Source: a virus
Taxonomy: Duplodnaviria > Heunggongvirae > Uroviricota > Caudoviricetes
IMG/VR virus record: IMGVR_UViG_2681813316_000019
Coordinates: 1 to 6,567 of that record
Reading direction: 5' to 3' (one strand)
DNA: 6,567 nt
In this document: one piece after another, positions 1-6,567 of the stretch
Position numbering within the stretch: position 1 is the stretch's first letter
Layout of the letters: every line of letters begins with the position of its first letter
Notes under the pieces: model-generated
Database searches by the model: none
What the model saw: only the letters and a program-made list of their open reading frames with translations
What the model was told of the DNA's origin: nothing
Program-made: the position numbers and the translations under genes

Positions 1-140
1 CTATCGGCGAAGGTGAGTTGATGGCTCATGATGTCCCTCTGGGATGCGCTCCGGATGAATATGATGATCTCATATCAGGAACTTGTTCGCACCTTCCCTA
101 ACTAACACTACGTTTCACACAGCAATTACATGGAAATAAC

Positions 141-488
141 ATGACTATCAAAGCGACTGACATAGAGATTCTTCATCGTTATGCTGAAGGGGTAATGGAA
201 CGTTCTAACCATCATGCAAAAAATGTTGGTGCAGCCGCTCTTACATTGCTAGGAGGTGTTATCTGGAAAGCCCTGCCCGGATCAATCGAGATAAGAACGT
301 ATAACGGAAGTCTTGCAAATATGGTGTGGTGGCAAAGCGAAAGAACATTAAAAAATTATGCAATCTCATACAACCATAATTCATGTGAAATTGAAATGAG
401 AGATGAATCAGTCAAAAGTGCTGTATTATTTAGCATTTCCAACGAAACCACTCCAGAAAAAATATTATCACAGCTTTCTGAGCTTTAA
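141..488 (+). CDS. Hypothetical protein (115 aa), family not recognised; oriented opposite to the adjacent replication operon
   Basis: Intact ATG-initiated ORF 141..488 from the ORF track. Hand count of sample lines gives roughly 40% G+C against about 50% in P/O. No motif I can assign. Sits beyond the 3' end of P where lambda has ren/nin genes, but on the other strand. Confidence 0.45.
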   Translation: MTIKATDIEILHRYAEGVMERSNHHAKNVGAAALTLLGGVIWKALPGSIEIRTYNGSLANMVWWQSERTLKNYAISYNHNSCEIEMRDESVKSAVLFSISNETTPEKILSQLSEL

Positions 489-493
489 TTAAA

Positions 494-511
494 GGCGGTG
501 CTAACACCGCC
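494..511. terminator. GC-rich hairpin (GGCGGTG-CTAA-CACCGCC) between the convergent ORF 141..488 and gene P; possible bidirectional terminator
   Basis: Perfect 7-bp inverted repeat with 4-nt loop seen directly. On the minus strand it is followed by TTTAATTAAA (partly U-rich); on the plus strand the tail is not U-rich. Placed between two convergent genes. Confidence 0.35.
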
Positions 512-692
512 CATACCATTACTCCACATCTTACGCAACTTGATAATTATGCTCTATTAAATACCCACAATATTTCATCAATGCATGGGTCAGCTACAAA
601 ATGTTTACCGTGGTAATTCCTGTTTTCGCAACATCTCAAAAGAACAATAAACACTGTATTTCTTCAAGTAACGAAGAATCTTTCTTTGCCCG

Positions 693-1394
693 TCATACAC
701 TTGCTCCTTTCAGCCCAAACTTAGCTTTGATTTCTGCGATCTTCGCCAGAGCCTGTGCACGATTTAGAGGTCTACCGCCCATAACAGGAAGTTGTTTTAC
801 TGGTTCAGGTATCGTCTCACCACGGTTAATTCGCGCTGTCATACAGGTCAGTTCATCGGCAGCCTTGCGCCGTAATTCCGCGTCAGTCAGCGCATTGGCC
901 CGCATGTTCTGGTACAGGTTGGTAACCAGCCAGTAGTGCGCGTTTGATTTCCATGGATAAGACTCTGCATCCGGATAAAGGCCACGCTTCCGGCAATACT
1001 CGTAAACCATATCAACCAGCTCGCTGGCGTTTGGCAGCCCGGCGTTAACGGATGCTTCTTCCCGGCACCAGGCGACAAACTGCCCGGGTGATGGCAGGAA
1101 TGGTCGATTCTGCCGACGGGCTACGCGCATTCCTGCGTTAACCTGTTCCATTGTGGTGATCCCGTTTTCCCGGAAAGCCAGAACCCACTGGCGGCGGATT
1201 TCGTTCAGTTCGTTCTGGTCACGGTTAGCCAGGCTCGCCGGGAAAGTTGCCAGTAACTGGCTGAACACACCGTTGATGATCTGCGCTACCTGCTGTACCT
1301 GCGGCTTTTCGTCGTACTGTTCCGGCATGTTGTTGGCGATCCGGCGCATCTGCTCACGGTCAAAGTTAACCATCTGTGCGGCGATGTTTTTCAT
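693..1394 (-). CDS. P: Replication protein P (DnaB helicase loader), lambda-type
   Basis: 233-aa translation matches phage lambda P as I remember it almost residue for residue along its whole length (MKNIAAQMVNFDREQMRRIANNMPEQYDEKPQV...AKIAEIKAKFGLKGASV). ATG at 1392-1394 overlaps the TGA stop of the upstream O gene (ATGA). Confidence 0.95.
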   Translation of the reverse strand: MKNIAAQMVNFDREQMRRIANNMPEQYDEKPQVQQVAQIINGVFSQLLATFPASLANRDQNELNEIRRQWVLAFRENGITTMEQVNAGMRVARRQNRPFLPSPGQFVAWCREEASVNAGLPNASELVDMVYEYCRKRGLYPDAESYPWKSNAHYWLVTNLYQNMRANALTDAELRRKAADELTCMTARINRGETIPEPVKQLPVMGGRPLNRAQALAKIAEIKAKFGLKGASV

Positions 1395-2320
1395 AAATCC
1401 ACCCCGTAAATCCAGTCAGTGTTTGTCAGGTCGAGTTTTGATTTTCCGGTTGTCACGCCAGCCTGTTGCTTGTTACGGTTGATTTCGAGTTGGGTCCACT
1501 TGTCGCGGAGTTTGGCCGGACTCAGCACGTTACCGGACCAGAAGTTGTCCTGGCATGCCCAGCGGAACAGCACGCACATGTCGCGGTGGTTACGTCCGTC
1601 ACGTTCACGCATCAGGCGGATATCGTTAGCCCACCCTGCAAAATTCGGTTTTCTGGCTGATGGTGCGATGGTCTTCACCATGTCAAACATCCACTCTGCG
1701 GCGGTCAGGTCTTCTGCTGTCCCCCACTTGCTGCCGCTCTGAATCGCAGCATCCGGTTTCACCACAGGAAGGTCGTTTTCTGGCTGGTCAGAGTATTCGC
1801 CAGAATTCTCGGACGAATAAGGTTTTATATTGTCTTTTGTTAGTTTGTCTTTTGTGTTTACCTGATTCGGGTAAGTGCCTTTACCTGATTTGGGTAAACT
1901 TTTCTTACCTGATTCAGGTAAATTTACCTCTTTCAGGTAAACTTTATTTTTCTTACCTGATTCGGGTAATGTTGACCATTCACTGACCACATTATTAATG
2001 CCGATATTCCGCCCGCTCTGAATAAAAATCCCACGCTTTACCAGAACACTTTTTGCAGCAGAACACTTGTGCGGCAATATCCCGGTCAACTCGGAAAGTT
2101 GCTCGTTGCTCACCCAATCCAGTTTTTTATTAAAGCCATATGTTTTGCGCATGACAGCCAGGAAGACCAGAAGCTGGTGCTGTGTTAATCCGGCCAGCAT
2201 CACAGCTTCCAGCAACTCATTTGCAATGCGCGTATAACCATCATCGAGATCTGCCACGCGCGGCTCCTTTTGTGCCACATCCGGCACTGGAAAATTGAAT
2301 ATCTCAGCAGTGTTTGCCAT
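1391..2320 (-). CDS. O: Replication initiator protein O (origin-binding); C-terminal domain lambda-like, N-terminal DNA-binding region divergent
   Basis: C-terminal about 60 aa (RDMCVLFRWACQDNFWSGNVLSPAKLRDKWTQLEINRNKQQAGVT...LDLTNTDWIYGVDL) matches lambda O closely; the N-terminus MANTAEIFNF resembles lambda O MTNTAKILNF. Start chosen at the ATG at 2318-2320 because it is preceded by GGGAGGAATT (strong SD). The ORF-track extension to 2410 adds 30 residues with no RBS and would overlap the upstream gene. Iterons lie inside the coding region, as in lambda. Confidence 0.9.
   Translation of the reverse strand: MANTAEIFNFPVPDVAQKEPRVADLDDGYTRIANELLEAVMLAGLTQHQLLVFLAVMRKTYGFNKKLDWVSNEQLSELTGILPHKCSAAKSVLVKRGIFIQSGRNIGINNVVSEWSTLPESGKKNKVYLKEVNLPESGKKSLPKSGKGTYPNQVNTKDKLTKDNIKPYSSENSGEYSDQPENDLPVVKPDAAIQSGSKWGTAEDLTAAEWMFDMVKTIAPSARKPNFAGWANDIRLMRERDGRNHRDMCVLFRWACQDNFWSGNVLSPAKLRDKWTQLEINRNKQQAGVTTGKSKLDLTNTDWIYGVDL
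1858..1969. repeat. Origin of replication: five 17-bp iterons (consensus TTACCTGATTCGGGTAA, arms TTACC/GGTAA) inside gene O, with an AT-rich segment at about 1806-1857 on the O-downstream side
   Basis: Seen directly: copies start at 1858, 1881, 1905, 1924 and 1953, each an imperfect palindrome TTACC-N7-GGTAA. The flanking segment 1811-1860 is strongly A+T-rich. Architecture matches ori-lambda (iterons then AT-rich region within O), but the iteron sequence is not the lambda one. Confidence 0.8.
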
Positions 2321-2406
2321 AATTCCTCCCGCAATGAGTGCGTTACGATTTGCACCTGAAAGTCGGCTCTGTTCCCGCAGACCGGCTTTCGCCATTTCTG
2401 AGCCTG

Positions 2407-2952
2407 TCATATTGCCCCCAACATGGTGGTAACCATCGCCATCAATGGACCAGCCAGATCCGGGTCCACACGAAACATCGACACAATACCTTCACTAATT
2501 TCCTTCAGTTTCTGGTGGCGTGGTGCGTTGAGAATGACTGCCTGTTTTGCCTCACTGAGTTCCTTTTCCATTTCAGCCAACCTAGCCATGAAGCTATCCT
2601 GCTCAACCAGGTAACCGCGATATTCCAGCGGTAGTACCGCTAGAATTGCCGGGGTCAGTTCACGCACGTTATTTCGGTATTTTTCAGAATCGAATTTGTT
2701 ATCGAGGAAGCGGAACAGCTTCTGGCGTGCACGGCTGACATCATCAGGGAAATCGATGGCGCCGCCGCCCTGCTCCCGATACTCATTCACAATGAGTGTG
2801 GCAACGACATCCTGATTATCTTCAGCCGACCAGGCGCGGACGGCATCACGGATTTTTTCGTGGCCTGGCACCTGTTTTGTTTGAGAACGATTTATCACCG
2901 CAGTCGGGCTAAATCCGCTAGTCTGTTGGTATGTAAGTGGTTGCATAGTCAT
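2407..2952 (-). CDS. YdaT-like protein at the cII position (function uncertain)
   Basis: 181-aa ORF immediately downstream (24-bp gap) of the Cro-like gene and upstream of O. Segments NEYREQGGG and TPAILAVLPLEYR resemble the Rac-prophage YdaT family as I remember it, which is why I call it YdaT-like. True start may be the second ATG (2944-2946), which has better spacing to an AAGG. Confidence 0.55.
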   Translation of the reverse strand: MTMQPLTYQQTSGFSPTAVINRSQTKQVPGHEKIRDAVRAWSAEDNQDVVATLIVNEYREQGGGAIDFPDDVSRARQKLFRFLDNKFDSEKYRNNVRELTPAILAVLPLEYRGYLVEQDSFMARLAEMEKELSEAKQAVILNAPRHQKLKEISEGIVSMFRVDPDLAGPLMAMVTTMLGAI

Positions 2953-2976
2953 TGCCTTATCAGTTAACGCCGCAGT

Positions 2977-3204
2977 TTAGGCGGCAGAATTACTCGCGTT
3001 AAACAATGGTGCGAGGTCGGGACGAATATCTGCTGGTTTAATCTTTCCACCAGTGGCTGAGACAATTTTCATTACATAGCGGGCATCAATTCCGCCACCG
3101 TGTAGCCAACGCCAAACTGTGGGTTGGGCTACACCGCATAGATCTGCCAGTCGTTTTTGACTACCTGTAATACTGATTGCGAGTTGAATGGTTTGATTTG
3201 TCAT
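2977..3204 (-). CDS. Cro-like small HTH regulator (YdaS-like)
   Basis: 76 aa from the ATG at 3202-3204 (the ORF-track start at 3210 is a TTG). HTH segment GSQKRLADLCGVAQPTVWRW and the downstream IRPDL motif resemble YdaS/Cro-type regulators. Divergent from the repressor gene across a 110-bp operator region. AGGA lies 8 nt upstream. Confidence 0.75.
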   Translation of the reverse strand: MTNQTIQLAISITGSQKRLADLCGVAQPTVWRWLHGGGIDARYVMKIVSATGGKIKPADIRPDLAPLFNASNSAA

Positions 3205-3314
3205 TATCAATTCCTATTGGTATTGCAATGAATGAATAATAGCAATGCGTATTAATCCAAGTAATAGCAAAACGTGTTTTGACCATCAATACGCAAGCGT
3301 ATAAATTAAAACTT
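3205..3314. promoter_or_regulatory. Divergent immunity control region (OR-like): repeated operator motif TAATAGCAA(T) and candidate PR and PRM promoters
   Basis: TAATAGCAAT at 3237-3246 and TAATAGCAA at 3262-3270, plus a related palindromic ATTGCAAT at 3222-3229. Candidate PRM on plus strand: TTGAC(C) 3279-3284, about 16 bp, TATAAA 3300-3305, placing the transcription start at or just before the repressor ATG at 3315. Candidate PR on minus strand: TTGATG (plus coords 3284-3289), 17 bp, TATTAC (3261-3266). Promoter hexamers are by eye, not scored. Confidence 0.55.
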
Positions 3315-4007
3315 ATGAAAAAAGAAACTCTTGCTGATCGCTTAAACCTAGCGATGGAACAATCTGGAATGTCTCAAGGCGCTCTTGCAAAGGCGTCTGG
3401 CGTAGCTCAACCCACAATCTGGAGACTGACAAGCGGCAACGCGCGCGGCTCAACAAAAATTGTTGAAATAGCTAATGCATTGGGTGTTCGAACAGAATGG
3501 CTCTCATCAGGCATAGGCCCGATGAGAAATGACGGTCAACAATCAGGGAAGCCTGCTGTCAGCCATTCAAAATACTTCAAGATTGACGTTCTTGATATAG
3601 AAGTCAGTGCCGGGCCGGGTGTAATCAACCGTGAGTTTGTAGAAGTTCTACGCTCGGTTGAGTACTCGTTTGACGATGCTCGTCACATGTTCGATGGCAG
3701 GAAGGCGGAAAATATCCGCATCATTAACGTGCGTGGTGACAGCATGTCAGGAACGATCGAACCAGGTGATCTTCTGTTCGTTGATATCACGGTTAAATCT
3801 TTCGACGGTGATGGTATCTATGCGTTTCTGTATGACGACACAGCCCATGTAAAGCGCCTGCAAATGATGAAGGATAAGCTGCTGGTTATCTCTGATAACA
3901 AGAGCTACTCACCGTGGGACCCGATCGAGAAAGACGAGATGAACCGGGTATTCATCTTCGGGAAAGTCATCGGAAGCATGCCGCAGACGTATAGGAAGCA
4001 TGGGTAG
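3315..4007 (+). CDS. CI-type prophage repressor: N-terminal HTH_XRE domain plus C-terminal LexA-like S24 peptidase (autocleavable, SOS-inducible type)
   Basis: HTH MSQGALAKASGVAQPTIWRLTSG; candidate Ala-Gly cleavage site in EVSAGPGV; catalytic Ser motif VRGDSMSG and Lys in AHVKRL, as in LexA and lambda CI. Start set at the ATG at 3315 (MKKETL...); the ORF-track start at 3279 is a TTG. No SD precedes 3315. Confidence 0.85.
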   Translation: MKKETLADRLNLAMEQSGMSQGALAKASGVAQPTIWRLTSGNARGSTKIVEIANALGVRTEWLSSGIGPMRNDGQQSGKPAVSHSKYFKIDVLDIEVSAGPGVINREFVEVLRSVEYSFDDARHMFDGRKAENIRIINVRGDSMSGTIEPGDLLFVDITVKSFDGDGIYAFLYDDTAHVKRLQMMKDKLLVISDNKSYSPWDPIEKDEMNRVFIFGKVIGSMPQTYRKHG

Positions 4008-4118
4008 TGAAGGACGTGTCAACTCTATTTTGTAAGCTATCCAGACTCACAGTTGCAGATCGACGAGTAACTTACATACAGCACAAAAAAACAATATGCG
4101 AGTGCTTTTAGACTAGAC

Positions 4119-4133
4119 TTACCATAATGGTAA
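4119..4133. promoter_or_regulatory. 15-bp palindrome TTACCAT-A-ATGGTAA overlapping the first ATG of the toxin-like gene; candidate operator for the module
   Basis: Perfect 7-bp arms seen directly. Resembles the ACCT-N-AGGT type palindromes bound by MqsA-family antitoxins (from memory). Position at the 5' end of the three-gene module. Confidence 0.35.
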
Positions 4134-4537
4134 CAAGTATGATTCTTAGCAGATATGTGGGAACTCCTCCCCGTGATGGCGAGGACAGAAAGATTCAAGG
4201 TGGTCCGCTTTATTTAGATATCATTGATTTGATTGATGAATGTGACACACTGCCTTGGACTAAACGGTGTATCAGGGATGTTCAATCGCTTTCTTTAGAT
4301 GCAGATGACATCAAATCTATGGTGATAAAAGCAGTCACTAAAGGGAGATTTCTAGGTTCAGAATGGTGTCAAGGCAGTAAACCAGGTGTATGGGCAGCTT
4401 GTGATGCTTATAGCTTTGAGCACTCATTTTGGTGCCAAGCTATGCATAAAGAACTTAATAACGAGTTCTACATTAAATTTTTTGTAAACATTACTGGCAA
4501 TGTAGTGCTTACAGTATCTCTTCATCTCTCTAATTGA
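4127..4537 (+). CDS. MqsR-like toxin (RelE-superfamily mRNA interferase fold), putative toxin of a TAC module
   Basis: 136-aa ORF. C-terminal half (DDIKSMVIKAV...WCQAMHKELNNEFYIKFFVNITGNVVLTVSLHLSN) aligns by eye with E. coli MqsR (DFYKSMTT...YLKITVIHDVLIVSFKEK). Toxin-first gene order matches mqsR-mqsA. About 25 N-terminal residues are extra; an alternative start is ATG 4139. No clear SD. Confidence 0.55.
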   Translation: MVTSMILSRYVGTPPRDGEDRKIQGGPLYLDIIDLIDECDTLPWTKRCIRDVQSLSLDADDIKSMVIKAVTKGRFLGSEWCQGSKPGVWAACDAYSFEHSFWCQAMHKELNNEFYIKFFVNITGNVVLTVSLHLSN

Positions 4538-4561
4538 GTGATGATAAATGAGGATTTTTAT

Positions 4562-5149
4562 ATGAGAAACAACAACATATGTCCAGTTTGTGGTGTAGGT
4601 CATCTCACCGTGGAGATGGAGTATGATGATGTTACTTATAAAGGGGAAACAAAAAATCTCCCAATAAGGTTTTCTGTGTGTGATCAATGTGGTTCGGAAA
4701 CTGCCACACCAGTCGATTTACGAGAAAACAAACGAATTTTCAATGAATACAAAAAGTCTATCGATGGACTTTTAACAGGAAAAGAATTAAAAAAAATTAG
4801 AACTGAAGTATGGATGATAACCCAGCAAAAGGCATCCTCTATATTTGGTGGGGGGCCTAAGGCATTTTCCAAGTATGAATCTGATGATGTCATTCAATCA
4901 GAAGCAATGGATAAACTGATGCGTTTAGCAGCAGAAGTTCCTGATGCATTCAAAAGGTTACGGGAATTATCTGGCGAAATCAAAGTTGAAAGAACAGTCT
5001 CATCATCTAAATCTTTACCTATATGGAAATCTGAAGCAAAAGCACAATTTGAAAACGATGATCAGGGATTTGACAGCAAATCACCAGCCCAAACAAAAAT
5101 GAATCAAACATCAATAAAGATAAAAACTGTTGCTAAGCGGGTAGCATGA
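4562..5149 (+). CDS. MqsA-like antitoxin: N-terminal zinc ribbon (CPVC...CDQC) plus HTH_XRE domain, with a C-terminal extension of about 55-60 aa
   Basis: ICPVCGVGH...CDQCGSE resembles the MqsA Zn-binding domain (MKCPVCHQGE...YCVHCEE). ITQQKASSIFGGGPKAFSKYESDD matches the MqsA HTH region LTQKEASEIFGGGVNAFSRYEKGN. Start placed at ATG 4562, preceded by GAGGA with a 7-nt spacer; the ORF-track start at 4538 is GTG. The protein is about 65 aa longer than E. coli MqsA, mostly at the C-terminus. Confidence 0.75.
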   Translation: MRNNNICPVCGVGHLTVEMEYDDVTYKGETKNLPIRFSVCDQCGSETATPVDLRENKRIFNEYKKSIDGLLTGKELKKIRTEVWMITQQKASSIFGGGPKAFSKYESDDVIQSEAMDKLMRLAAEVPDAFKRLRELSGEIKVERTVSSSKSLPIWKSEAKAQFENDDQGFDSKSPAQTKMNQTSIKIKTVAKRVA

Positions 5150-5649
5150 TGAATGAACTTCTTAGATCAGCAATAGACGCATTATCAATAATGCATATCA
5201 ATATCAGAGAATCTAACTTTGCTTTTTCTGAAGGGTATAATAGCTTTAACTTCAACAGCATAAATAAGCAAACACAATCATTTCGTAAGATAAAAAAAAT
5301 CGAAGCTATTGAATTAGTAAGTGACGATGACTCATTAAAAAATGAGCTATATTACTCTTTTCACTACTCAGTTGGGCTTAGATTTATTGCAAAATCCGAA
5401 GAAACATCTAAAGACGAAAATGATGTTGATACAATTTTTTCTATAGAAGCAATTTTTGAGGCGATATATCGCTCAAAAAGAGAATTATCTAAAGAAGAGT
5501 TAGAAGAATTTGCTAAGCAAAATGTAGGTTTTAATGTATGGCCTTTTTGGCGAGAGTATGTTCAAAACAGCACATCCAGAATGGGAATTACTACAATAGC
5601 TATACCATTCTTTAAATTCAATAAATCAGACATACCTTCATTAGATTAA
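5146..5649 (+). CDS. SecB-like chaperone, putative third component of a TAC module
   Basis: 167 aa. C-terminal segment FNVWPFWREYVQNSTSRMGITTIAIPFFKF matches the conserved SecB segment [34 protein letters not shown]; IFSI and an acidic central region also align. Start ATG overlaps the antitoxin stop (ATGA at 5146-5149), suggesting translational coupling. Hand-counted G+C on one sample line is about one third. Confidence 0.6.
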   Translation: MMNELLRSAIDALSIMHINIRESNFAFSEGYNSFNFNSINKQTQSFRKIKKIEAIELVSDDDSLKNELYYSFHYSVGLRFIAKSEETSKDENDVDTIFSIEAIFEAIYRSKRELSKEELEEFAKQNVGFNVWPFWREYVQNSTSRMGITTIAIPFFKFNKSDIPSLD

Positions 5650-5663
5650 ATTCAAATATAACT

Positions 5664-5690
5664 CCCGGCTACCGTGCCGGGTTTTCTTTT
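5664..5690 (+). terminator. Rho-independent terminator ending the repressor-side operon (t_imm equivalent)
   Basis: CCCGGC-TACCGT-GCCGGG hairpin (6-bp GC stem) followed directly by TTTTCTTTT, 15 bp after the stop of the SecB-like gene. Confidence 0.8.
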
Positions 5691-5780
5691 GTCCCCTCCC
5701 CTCATCACACACCGTTCAAAAAACCACCACGACCTCACTTCAGTTATCGCTATGCGATGCAAGTCACAAAATTAATTCTT

Positions 5781-5860
5781 TTTGCTATCAAACATTTAAT
5801 ATCAAAACACATCAACTAATAGCAATAAGTATTGATATCACCAATAGCAATAGCTATTAT
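5781..5860 (+). promoter_or_regulatory. OL/PL-like region: operator motif copies shared with the OR region, overlapping a candidate sigma70 promoter for the leftward early operon
   Basis: TAATAGCAAT at 5817-5826 (exact 10-mer also at 3237-3246), AATAGCAAT at 5843-5851 adjoining palindrome AATAGCTATT (5849-5858), and reverse-oriented TTTGCTAT at 5781-5788. Candidate promoter: TTGATA 5832-5837, 17-bp spacer, TATTAT 5855-5860, with operator copies in the spacer. Confidence 0.55.
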
Positions 5861-6137
5861 CACCATATCGCAACAACACAACGATACGGCAACCACCTGA
5901 TTCACCGTTGCGATGACCGCTTAGATCCGCAGCTTGAATTTCAGCAGGCTTCGGGGAGTGCGAGGGATGAAACGGACGCGTGAACGTCGGTGTGACCAGC
6001 TGAAATCAACTCAACATTTCATACCTTAGTCGCTTCAACGAGGCGGCTTAGTTATGACAACCGGCGGCCATCCACCGCCTGAATACGCGCAGAAGTCTTT
6101 ATATGTTCAGCAGCCCAGCTTACGGGCAGGAGTTTTT

Positions 6138-6344
6138 ATGGTTCATCAACATTACGGAACGCAGACCGTTAATCGCGGTGCGGTCATGCCAGGAATGCTG
6201 GTCAAACGCAAAGATGGTACCTGGACTGCATCAGCTAATTTACGCGGACGACTTTATCTGCATCGCGGCATTGAGCGCACTTATACCCGTGACTTGCTCG
6301 TGGAAGTTTTTCTCGACGGACGCGGTAACGGCCTCAATCACTAA
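6138..6344 (+). CDS. Hypothetical small early protein (68 aa from ATG 6138), upstream of gam
   Basis: ATG 6138 is preceded by AGGAG with a 5-nt spacer. The frame is open back to 6030 (ORF track starts it at ATG 6054, 96 aa). Composition looks protein-like. No family recognised. Confidence 0.35.
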
Positions 6345-6419
6345 TCCCCTTTCCTGTTTTCCTAATCAGCCTGGCATTTCGCGGGCGATATTTTCACAGC
6401 CATTTTCAGGAGTTCAGCC

Positions 6420-6567
6420 ATGAACGCTTATTACATTCAGGATCGTCTTGAGGCTCAGAGCTGGGCGCGTCACTACCAGCAGATCGCCCGTGAAGAGAAA
6501 GAGGCAGAACTGGCAGACGACATGGAAAAAGGCCTGCCCCAGCACCTGTTTGAATCGCTATGCATCG
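6420..6567 (+). CDS. gam: Host-nuclease (RecBCD) inhibitor Gam, 5' portion only (continues past window end)
   Basis: Translation [49 protein letters not shown] matches the lambda Gam (GamS form) N-terminus as I remember it, with one conservative difference. AGGAG lies 7 nt upstream of the ATG. The window ends at 6567 inside the gene. Confidence 0.9.

Follow-up and report, generated by a model that had tools for sequence, protein, structure and literature searches.

The ~6.5-kb stretch of DNA analysed here (IMG/VR virus record IMGVR_UViG_2681813316_000019, positions 1 to 6,567, all of which is called the window below) belongs to a lambdoid prophage and covers its immunity and early region, with the gene order P-O-ydaT-cro running leftward from a right operator region (OR) and cI running rightward from it towards a left operator region (OL), followed by kil-gam. 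The copies of a short motif that recur in these two regions are very likely the operators of a lambda-type bistable switch, predicted to bind the repressor CI and the Cro-like protein. The first-pass annotation had pointed to an exact 10-mer, TAATAGCAAT, as an operator motif common to OR and OL, and we recovered it at both of the places reported (3237-3246 and 5817-5826), together with the related copies TAATAGCAA at 3262-3270, AATAGCAAT at 5843-5851 and, reversed, ATAGCAAA at 5781-5788. Both regions are indeed non-coding, since OR (3205-3314) lies between the start of cro (3204, minus strand) and the cI ATG (3315), and OL falls within the interval 5650-6053 between the stop codon of a SecB-like gene and kil.

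The motif is a genuine part of the operator, but the 10-mer itself is not the whole of it. Alignment of the copies shows the operator unit to be a 16-bp pseudo-palindrome, AATAGC-N4-GCTATT, or 18 bp with the flanking T/A. TAATAGCAAT covers a single flank base, a half-site and three bases of the four-base centre, and appears to be the better-conserved half of predicted 16-18 bp repressor/Cro sites located at two early promoters. The copies listed earlier are real, but the list had overlooked OR3 (3287-3304), a further, fourth site in OR (3208-3225) and OL3 (5797-5814), which is degenerate; OR therefore holds three to four sites and not only the two listed, and the reversed copy at 5781-5788 is present but belongs only to a weak site. 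Sites were scored with a symmetrised 18-bp position weight matrix (PWM) built only from non-E. coli sites (Klebsiella phages and Kluyvera, Citrobacter and Raoultella prophages), which were picked by position and not by score. The sites, with the predicted early promoters PR and PL and the predicted cI promoter PRM, are the following:

3208-3225: OR4 candidate, CAATTCCTATTGGTATTG; at +5 to +20 of the predicted PR transcript; PWM score 17.3, above OR2
3236-3264, minus strand: predicted PR; -35 TTACTT (3264->3259), 17-bp spacer, extended -10 TGC-TATTAT (3244->3236), start at about 3229
3237-3254: OR1, TAATAGCAATGCGTATTA; core 3238-3253, at -9 to -24 of PR; PWM score 25.9, the top match
3262-3279: OR2, TAATAGCAAAACGTGTTT; core at -34 to -49 of PR and at -52 to -37 of PRM; PWM score 15.7
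3279-3307, plus strand: predicted PRM; TTGACC-17-TAAATT, or TATAAA at 3300-3305; from the promoter scan, hexamers invariant in 9 loci
3287-3304: OR3, CAATACGCAAGCGTATAA; core at -27 to -12 of PRM; PWM score 18.4, invariant in 9 loci
5773-5790: weak distal OL site (OL4?), TAATTCTTTTTGCTATCA; PWM score 8.3; contains the reversed copy
5797-5814: OL3, TAATATCAAAACACATCA; degenerate, left half alone good; PWM score 4.6
5817-5834: OL2, TAATAGCAATAAGTATTG; core at -49 to -34 of PL, overlapping its -35; PWM score 20.3; holds the second copy of the 10-mer
5832-5860, plus strand: predicted PL; TTGATA-17-TATTAT, start at about 5867; best promoter-scan match in the window (10/12)
5842-5859: OL1, CAATAGCAATAGCTATTA; core at -24 to -9 of PL; PWM score 23.8

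OR1, OR2 and OR3 start at 3237, 3262 and 3287, a spacing of exactly 25 bp, and the two strong OL sites (5817 and 5842) are also 25 bp apart, with the degenerate site 20 bp further out (5797); the OR-OL distance is 2.58 kb. The core of OL1 (5843-5858), AATAGC-AATA-GCTATT, has perfectly symmetric arms and no mismatch to AATAGC-N4-GCTATT. Relative to the predicted promoters, OL1 and OL2 occupy the same positions at PL as OR1 and OR2 at PR, and OR2 adjoins the -35 of PRM. PR, PRM, PL and their transcription start points are all predictions: PR was read by hand from the sequence, and relatives carry TGCTATTAT and a TTGCTN -35 at the homologous position, whereas PRM and PL came from the promoter scan, PL being conserved in relatives as well. 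Because the PRM start falls at or beside the cI ATG, the predicted cI mRNA would be leaderless, with no Shine-Dalgarno sequence; leaderless repressor transcripts have been shown experimentally for lambda cI and for paaR2 of CP-933P (PMC8630535).

In the complete 48.7-kb genome of the temperate coliphage PhiR70_1 the top seven matches to the PWM (14.7-25.9) are all in OR or OL and the next one scores 12.3, and in a 100-kb sample of host chromosome a single match reaches at least 12. The core 8-mer AATAGCAA occurs four times in PhiR70_1, each time within OR or OL, and the 10-mer twice, once in OR and once in OL, so that the similar genome-wide density proposed at first pass as the finding that would count against operators was not what we observed. 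OR1, OR2 and OR3 stand at -78, -53 and -28 from the cI ATG in 9/9 loci from five genera, OR1 including the first 10-mer copy and OR2 being near-invariant over these loci. Across the nine loci, 45 of 48 alignment columns in the OR cores are invariant, compared with 13 of 34 outside the cores and, when the PRM hexamers are also excluded, with 3 of 24 (Fisher p=5e-8). In each of the eight relatives that share the immunity type, a second operator cluster lies 1.9-2.9 kb from OR. The module as a whole is 96-99% identical in the temperate coliphages PhiR70_1, PhiR68_2, PhiR30_1, 4A7, 4C10, D2, 1W, 3W and Perceval and ~75% identical to that of two Klebsiella phages, and the operators are unannotated in every public record of relatives that we examined.

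The additional sites differ in how well they are conserved. The site at 3208-3225 is a probable fourth operator at OR: the PWM that scores it was built without that site, 8/8 relatives have a match there too (-107/-106 from the cI ATG), with scores of 9.2-18.1, and the immunity type exemplified by phage Turner, described below, likewise has a site adjoining the cro start. We grade it only as probable because it covers the cro Shine-Dalgarno sequence and its conservation could partly stem from the ribosome-binding site. At the 20-bp offset of OL3 from OL2, the Klebsiella and Raoultella loci have a site scoring 16-22; at the OL4 position GCTATCA is kept in relatives, which is weak evidence for a site.

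The two proteins predicted to bind the operators are encoded on either side of OR, and the coordinates of their genes and of the DNA encoding their putative recognition helices are:

2977-3204, minus strand: cro, 75 amino acids, YdaS-family helix-turn-helix (HTH) protein; Pfam PF15943, 54.6 bits (cut-off 30)
3106-3135: DNA encoding the Cro helix string GVAQPTVWRW
3315-4007, plus strand: cI, 230 amino acids, HTH N-terminal domain and S24 autopeptidase domain; Pfam HTH_3 and Peptidase_S24
3399-3428: DNA encoding the CI helix string GVAQPTIWRL

The near-identity of the two helices, noticed at first pass, is genuine. The strings correspond to residues 29-38 of CI (GVAQPTIWRL) and 24-33 of Cro (GVAQPTVWRW), share positions H0-H6 (AQPT[I/V]WR) and lie within a stretch of 48 residues over which Cro and the CI N-terminal domain, its paralog, are 40% identical (BLASTP, E=2e-8). 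Among PDB sequences searched with phmmer, CI residues 6-67 match best the DNA-binding domain of 434 repressor, R1-69 (1sq8, 2r63 and 1per; E 3e-6 to 1e-5); A-Q-P-T-I-W-R-L sits on helix 3 of 434 repressor, with 434 Gln28 conserved, and by this alignment the strings had been placed correctly as recognition helices. CI also has Ala99-Gly100, Ser143 (in GDSM) and Lys180, which we take to correspond to the self-cleavage elements of LexA and lambda CI. At the DNA level, 3112-3135 and 3399-3422, within the helix-coding segments, form a 24-nt inverted repeat with 83% complementarity, and five of the seven identical helix codons also share the third base, one of them being Trp, for which there is no synonymous choice; this likeness could reflect gene conversion between cro and cI or mere codon preference.

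Operator sequence covaries with the CI and Cro helices, as expected of an immunity cassette. All ten loci whose CI helix reads G[VI]AQPTIWRL carry 3-6 copies of the core, and nine of these ten AQPT-type loci keep the Cro helix GVAQPTVWRW, the tenth, from O157:H7, having a frameshifted cro. In contrast, none of the three loci that combine CI GVSQAAIQKI with Cro [ED]VSQQAVYKW (phages Turner and PhiR34_1 and a Klebsiella grimontii prophage) carries the core, and all three bear AACAAC-N4-GTTGTT sites at the equivalent places. The C-terminal domain of CI in Turner and PhiR34_1 is 96% identical at the DNA level to that of the window, and an alignment of the window with Turner shows at OL a ~90-bp block (about 5776-5866), precisely the part with the sites, as the only replaced segment, with near-identical flanks. 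In Kluyvera georgiana, whose CI has an overall identity of only 56%, the N-terminal domain and the motif are both retained. The proposal that the motif defines the immunity specificity of the phage is thus supported, since in heteroimmune relatives the sites, the CI N-terminal domain and Cro are all exchanged as a set. In O157:H7 strain 7409 (locus L015, 7001-7223) cI, OR and two strong OL sites are intact beside the frameshifted cro, a picture consistent with a prophage in decay in which repressor and operators are retained.

The exchange also fits the 'evolutionary code' published for Cro proteins (Hall and Cordes), in which, counting 8-bp half-sites from the outside, Gln at H1 goes with A at +2, Ser or Thr at H3 with G at +5 and Ala with A at +5, and Lys at H6 with C at +6 (PMC6649833). 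The window type has the half-site A1-A2-T3-A4-G5-C6 and Gln at H1, Thr at H3 and Arg at H6, and the Turner type has A-A-C-A-A-C with Ala at H3 and Lys at H6. All three coded positions agree with the code in both types, and the Thr/Ala change follows the G/A change at +5.

Could the motif recur for reasons unrelated to CI and Cro? Chance recurrence of an AT-rich 10-mer in two AT-rich intergenic regions is not contradicted by the exact repeat itself, which is not significant as stand-alone evidence: dinucleotide shuffles of the window give 27 +/- 7 repeated 10-mers (56 are observed), and, allowing up to two mismatches, the 10-mer has 19 matches where 8.35 are expected, with 1/200 shuffles reaching 19. 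The core 8-mer is another matter, with four copies in the window versus 0.29 expected (maximum 3 across 200 shuffles), and 1/200 shuffles produced any 8-mer that had four or more copies, all within two windows of at most 40 bp. This count and clustering, the genome-wide count, the cross-genus PWM scan, the footprint and the covariation (10/10 vs 0/3) refute chance, to which we give virtually no credence. That the repeats are not protein-binding sites but parts of promoters, or what is left of an OR/OL duplication, has some points in its favour, inasmuch as an extended -10, TGCTATTA(T), is present in the reverse complement of TAATAGCAAT, the -10 hexamers of PR (TGCTATTAT, 3244->3236) and PL (GCTATTAT, 5853-5860) lie inside OR1 and OL1, and a 50-nt direct repeat (3237-3286 vs 5817-5866, 72% identity) suggests a common origin of the two regions. 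However, OR2, OL2 and OR3 carry the motif at no predicted -10, the sites are pseudo-palindromic with a fixed 25-bp spacing, their cores are invariant amid diverging spacers, and heteroimmune phages have another palindrome at the same positions, which neither promoter likeness nor drift would predict; this account is very improbable.

A different alternative accepts real operators and assigns them to one protein only or to a third factor, YdaT or a host protein, so that CI and Cro would not share them. Binding of both proteins to common sites is indeed deduced from sequence, Cro belongs to the YdaS family, which in Pfam is not the family of the CI N-terminal domain, and beside OR, at 3193-3210, stands a sequence one mismatch away from the published CP-933P YdaT site (TTGATT-N6-AATCAA). 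Nevertheless, CI and Cro share AQPT[I/V]WR within their 40%-identical stretch of 48 amino acids, both helices change along with the motif in the other immunity type, and in CP-933P the repressor and YdaS footprint the same intergenic region (PMC8630535). As for YdaT, its published site differs in sequence and is absent from OR1-3 and OL1-2; with a single near-consensus copy, outside OR1-3, we rejected it as the source of the motif. Overall we regard sole ownership of the sites by one protein or a third factor as quite unlikely, and retain shared operators for CI and Cro as our interpretation.

Several observations weigh against this interpretation nonetheless. The right half-site of OR2 is weak, with 6/18 positions self-complementary, and OL3 and OL4 are degenerate in the window (PWM scores of 4.6 and 8.3). 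Conservation of the four-base centre, AAT[GA], has a single orientation, which a symmetric dimer does not need, and this oriented centre may stem from a shared origin of the sites and not from recognition. The -35 of PR, TTACTT, is poor and was missed by the automatic promoter scan, and the PR assignment leans on homology and the extended -10. Common descent links the nine loci, so that their invariance is partly shared ancestry; the diverged spacers argue that ancestry is not the whole explanation for the invariant cores. Counting Arg at H6 as Lys-like is an assumption of this analysis, and the function assigned to the cassette as a whole is a prediction.

If the sites are operators for CI and Cro, the switch could work as follows. 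A dimer of CI or of Cro would bind each operator through the shared HTH (A-Q-P-T-I/V-W-R). With OR1 over the -10 of PR and OR2 over its -35, CI on OR1 and OR2 would silence cro, ydaT, O and P, and CI bound at OR2, adjoining the -35 of PRM, could boost its own leaderless transcript. The weak right half of OR2 suggests that this site may be filled cooperatively from OR1. Since OR3 lies between the PRM hexamers, its occupation by Cro or by excess CI would switch cI off, whereas OL1 and OL2 would silence kil, gam, bet and exo. RecA-stimulated self-cleavage of CI would induce the prophage, given an S24 domain with the Ala-Gly, Ser and Lys elements. Occupancy of the sites by protein, their filling order, cooperativity, looping between OR and OL, and activation of PRM are all expectations drawn from this layout. 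A more elaborate version is possible but rather doubtful: four functional operators at OR and a matching distal AATTCY-type OL site (4+4, as hinted for CP-933P), with repressor blocking early PR elongation besides initiation; an oriented AAT(G/A) centre tuning affinity by indirect readout, as in 434 and P22; and a left operon that does without an N-type antiterminator gene.

The resemblance to lambda, which was part of the initial proposal, held up in the sequence-level predictions open to testing, the overlap of the sites with PR and PRM being consistent in geometry with the predicted promoters. As in lambda, cI and cro are divergent and separated by three tandem pseudo-palindromic operators, with OR1 and OR2 over the predicted PR, OR2 beside the -35 of the predicted PRM and OR3 within it; a second operator set lies at the predicted PL ~2.5 kb away, beyond cI and cargo genes, cI is predicted to be transcribed without a leader, and CI has an S24 self-cleaving domain. 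Sites are spaced 25/25 bp (OR) and 25/20 bp (OL), and those of lambda 24/23 (OR) and 24/20 (OL). Unlike lambda, in which the operator is 17 bp long with its axis on a base pair, the window has AATAGC-N4-GCTATT operators of 16-18 bp with the axis between base pairs. It also differs in that its Cro is an all-helical YdaS-family protein paralogous to the CI N-terminal domain, the cII position holds a YdaT-family protein, there is no N gene between PL and kil/gam, and OR has a probable fourth site over the cro ribosome-binding site.

In 434, too, Cro and the DNA-binding domain of the repressor are paralogs whose recognition helices are nearly identical (PMC6649833), and the outer four bp of the operators are strongly conserved (AATA...TATT in the window, ACAA...TTGT in 434) around a variable, A/T-rich centre. 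The arrangement AATA-N8-TATT is, however, wider than the ACAA-N6-TTGT of the 14-bp 434 operators, and the helices read QPTIWR and QQSIEQ, respectively. With operator sequence and width and helix residues all different, the immunity specificity differs from that of 434.

The closest characterised system is the PaaR2-YdaS-YdaT switch of CP-933P, whose function has been demonstrated by electrophoretic mobility shift assays, footprinting and reporters (PMC8630535). The window shares with it, and with RacR-YdaS-YdaT of Rac, a YdaS-family protein in the Cro position and a YdaT-family protein in the cII position, and with CP-933P also divergent PR/PRM promoters with several equally spaced ~18-bp repeats and a leaderless repressor gene. 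Four equally spaced inverted repeats were reported for CP-933P, and four are probable in the window; in CP-933P, as predicted for the window, a PL with OL1-3 lies beyond cargo genes that include a toxin-antitoxin module (PMC8630535). There are also differences. The CP-933P operator consensus GTTTAGTAA has no match in the window at up to one mismatch; the window cargo has an MqsA-type antitoxin and a SecB-like chaperone in place of paaA2-parE2; and the window repressor is a full CI with an S24 autocleavage domain, which PaaR2 may lack. The YdaT-like sequence at 3193-3210, TTGATTTGTCATTATCAA, spans the cro start codon and overlaps the OR4 candidate; going by its match to the CP-933P operator it could be a site for YdaT, the cII analog, although YdaT helices vary between family members and the main YdaT site of CP-933P is at the other end of the gene, at the end of ydaS (PMC9986795).

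N15 Cro offers a further parallel, with an even-length operator, 8-bp half-sites and Trp at H7. The ATAGC core of the window half-site resembles the N15 consensus TTATAGCT|AGCTATAA, and the half-site obeys the H1/+2, H3/+5 and H6/+6 correlations (PMC6649833). In N15, however, ATAGC is one bp nearer the dyad and the helix has Pro at H1, Ala at H3 and Gln at H6, unlike the QPTVWRW of the window; the coded half-site positions therefore differ between the two.

The operator specificity is apparently previously undescribed. A search of open-access full text, with the subscription literature outside its scope, returned no paper for the 16-mer AATAGCAATGCGTATT, and the matches to the 10-mer were unrelated. 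The system is of a thoroughly known kind, with an immunity specificity so far uncharacterised, and adds nothing conceptual to the lambda/434/CP-933P paradigm. It is widespread: the cassette formed by cro, OR and CI's N-terminal domain is present in 723 of 5,426 complete E. coli genomes (13%), including O157:H7, and is likewise carried by inducible coliphages and by prophages of Klebsiella, Kluyvera, Citrobacter and Raoultella. With the operators defined, prophages can be assigned to this homo-immunity group from sequence, superinfection immunity and cross-repression among co-resident prophages can be predicted, and reporters or engineered switches can be designed. The pair formed by AATAGC with Thr at H3 and AACAAC with Ala at H3 is a clean natural example for the recognition code, and could serve to test it for CI besides Cro.

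Some public annotations of relatives are likely to be in error at these loci (PV340577.1, 7602-7727; PP925837.1, 339-404). The annotated 'Cro' coding sequence of PhiR70_1 appears to match a 42-amino-acid open reading frame of the window (3161-3289, minus strand) that runs across OR, and the real 75-amino-acid cro falls in an unannotated gap of that record. In Turner and PhiR34_1 the annotated CI start adds 22 residues overlapping the OR sites, the likely start being MKTTLSERL.

The other features of the window are as follows:

693-1394, minus strand: replication gene P
1391-2410, minus strand: replication gene O
1853-1969, inside O: five ori iterons of ~22 bp, TTACCTGATTCGGGTAA-like, each internally palindromic
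2407-2952, minus strand: YdaT-family protein in the cII position; Pfam PF06254, 103.3 bits
4127-5649, plus strand: three cargo genes between cI and OL
5664-5681, plus strand: intrinsic-terminator-like hairpin from the terminator scan; kept in Turner and PhiR70_1
6138-6344, plus strand: kil, followed by the start of gam

The cargo, which takes the place of lambda rexAB, comprises a 136-amino-acid protein, an MqsA-family antitoxin and a SecB-like protein, and from its gene content it looks like a toxin-antitoxin-chaperone module. The antitoxin (TIGR03830, 113 bits) is the only solid family assignment among the three. The SecB-like protein has weak matches to Pfam SecB and PADLOC PD-T4-9_C and is named 'protein-export chaperone SecB' in RefSeq, and the 136-amino-acid putative toxin matched no family in the searches, which included PADLOC and NCBIfam. 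The slot varies among relatives: O157:H7 has a SIR2-family gene there, a Klebsiella phage a ParA-like one, and Turner almost nothing. The hairpin at 5664-5681 would terminate the cI-cargo operon immediately upstream of OL.

Between PL and kil/gam (5867-6137) there is no N-like gene and instead a ~190-nt untranslated leader, which is 95-100% conserved in 16 coliphages of both immunity types. We considered an HK022 put-like or structured antiterminator RNA at 5867-6053 and found no support for it, folding being no better than in shuffles (z=-0.15); the leader matched no Rfam family and had no HK022 match in the phage collection.

The iterons at 1853-1969 are the lambdoid ori, in O as expected; an Rfam scan of the whole window gave one match only, a chance miRNA hit inside these iterons (E=0.35). 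To the left of P, the open reading frame at 141-488 matches the Pfam family 'Integron cassette protein VCH_CASS14' (69 bits), a position occupied by ren in PhiR70_1 and in the closest E. coli prophage. Among E. coli genomes, the best matches start only at 683, which indicates that the left end of the window is a different mosaic piece.

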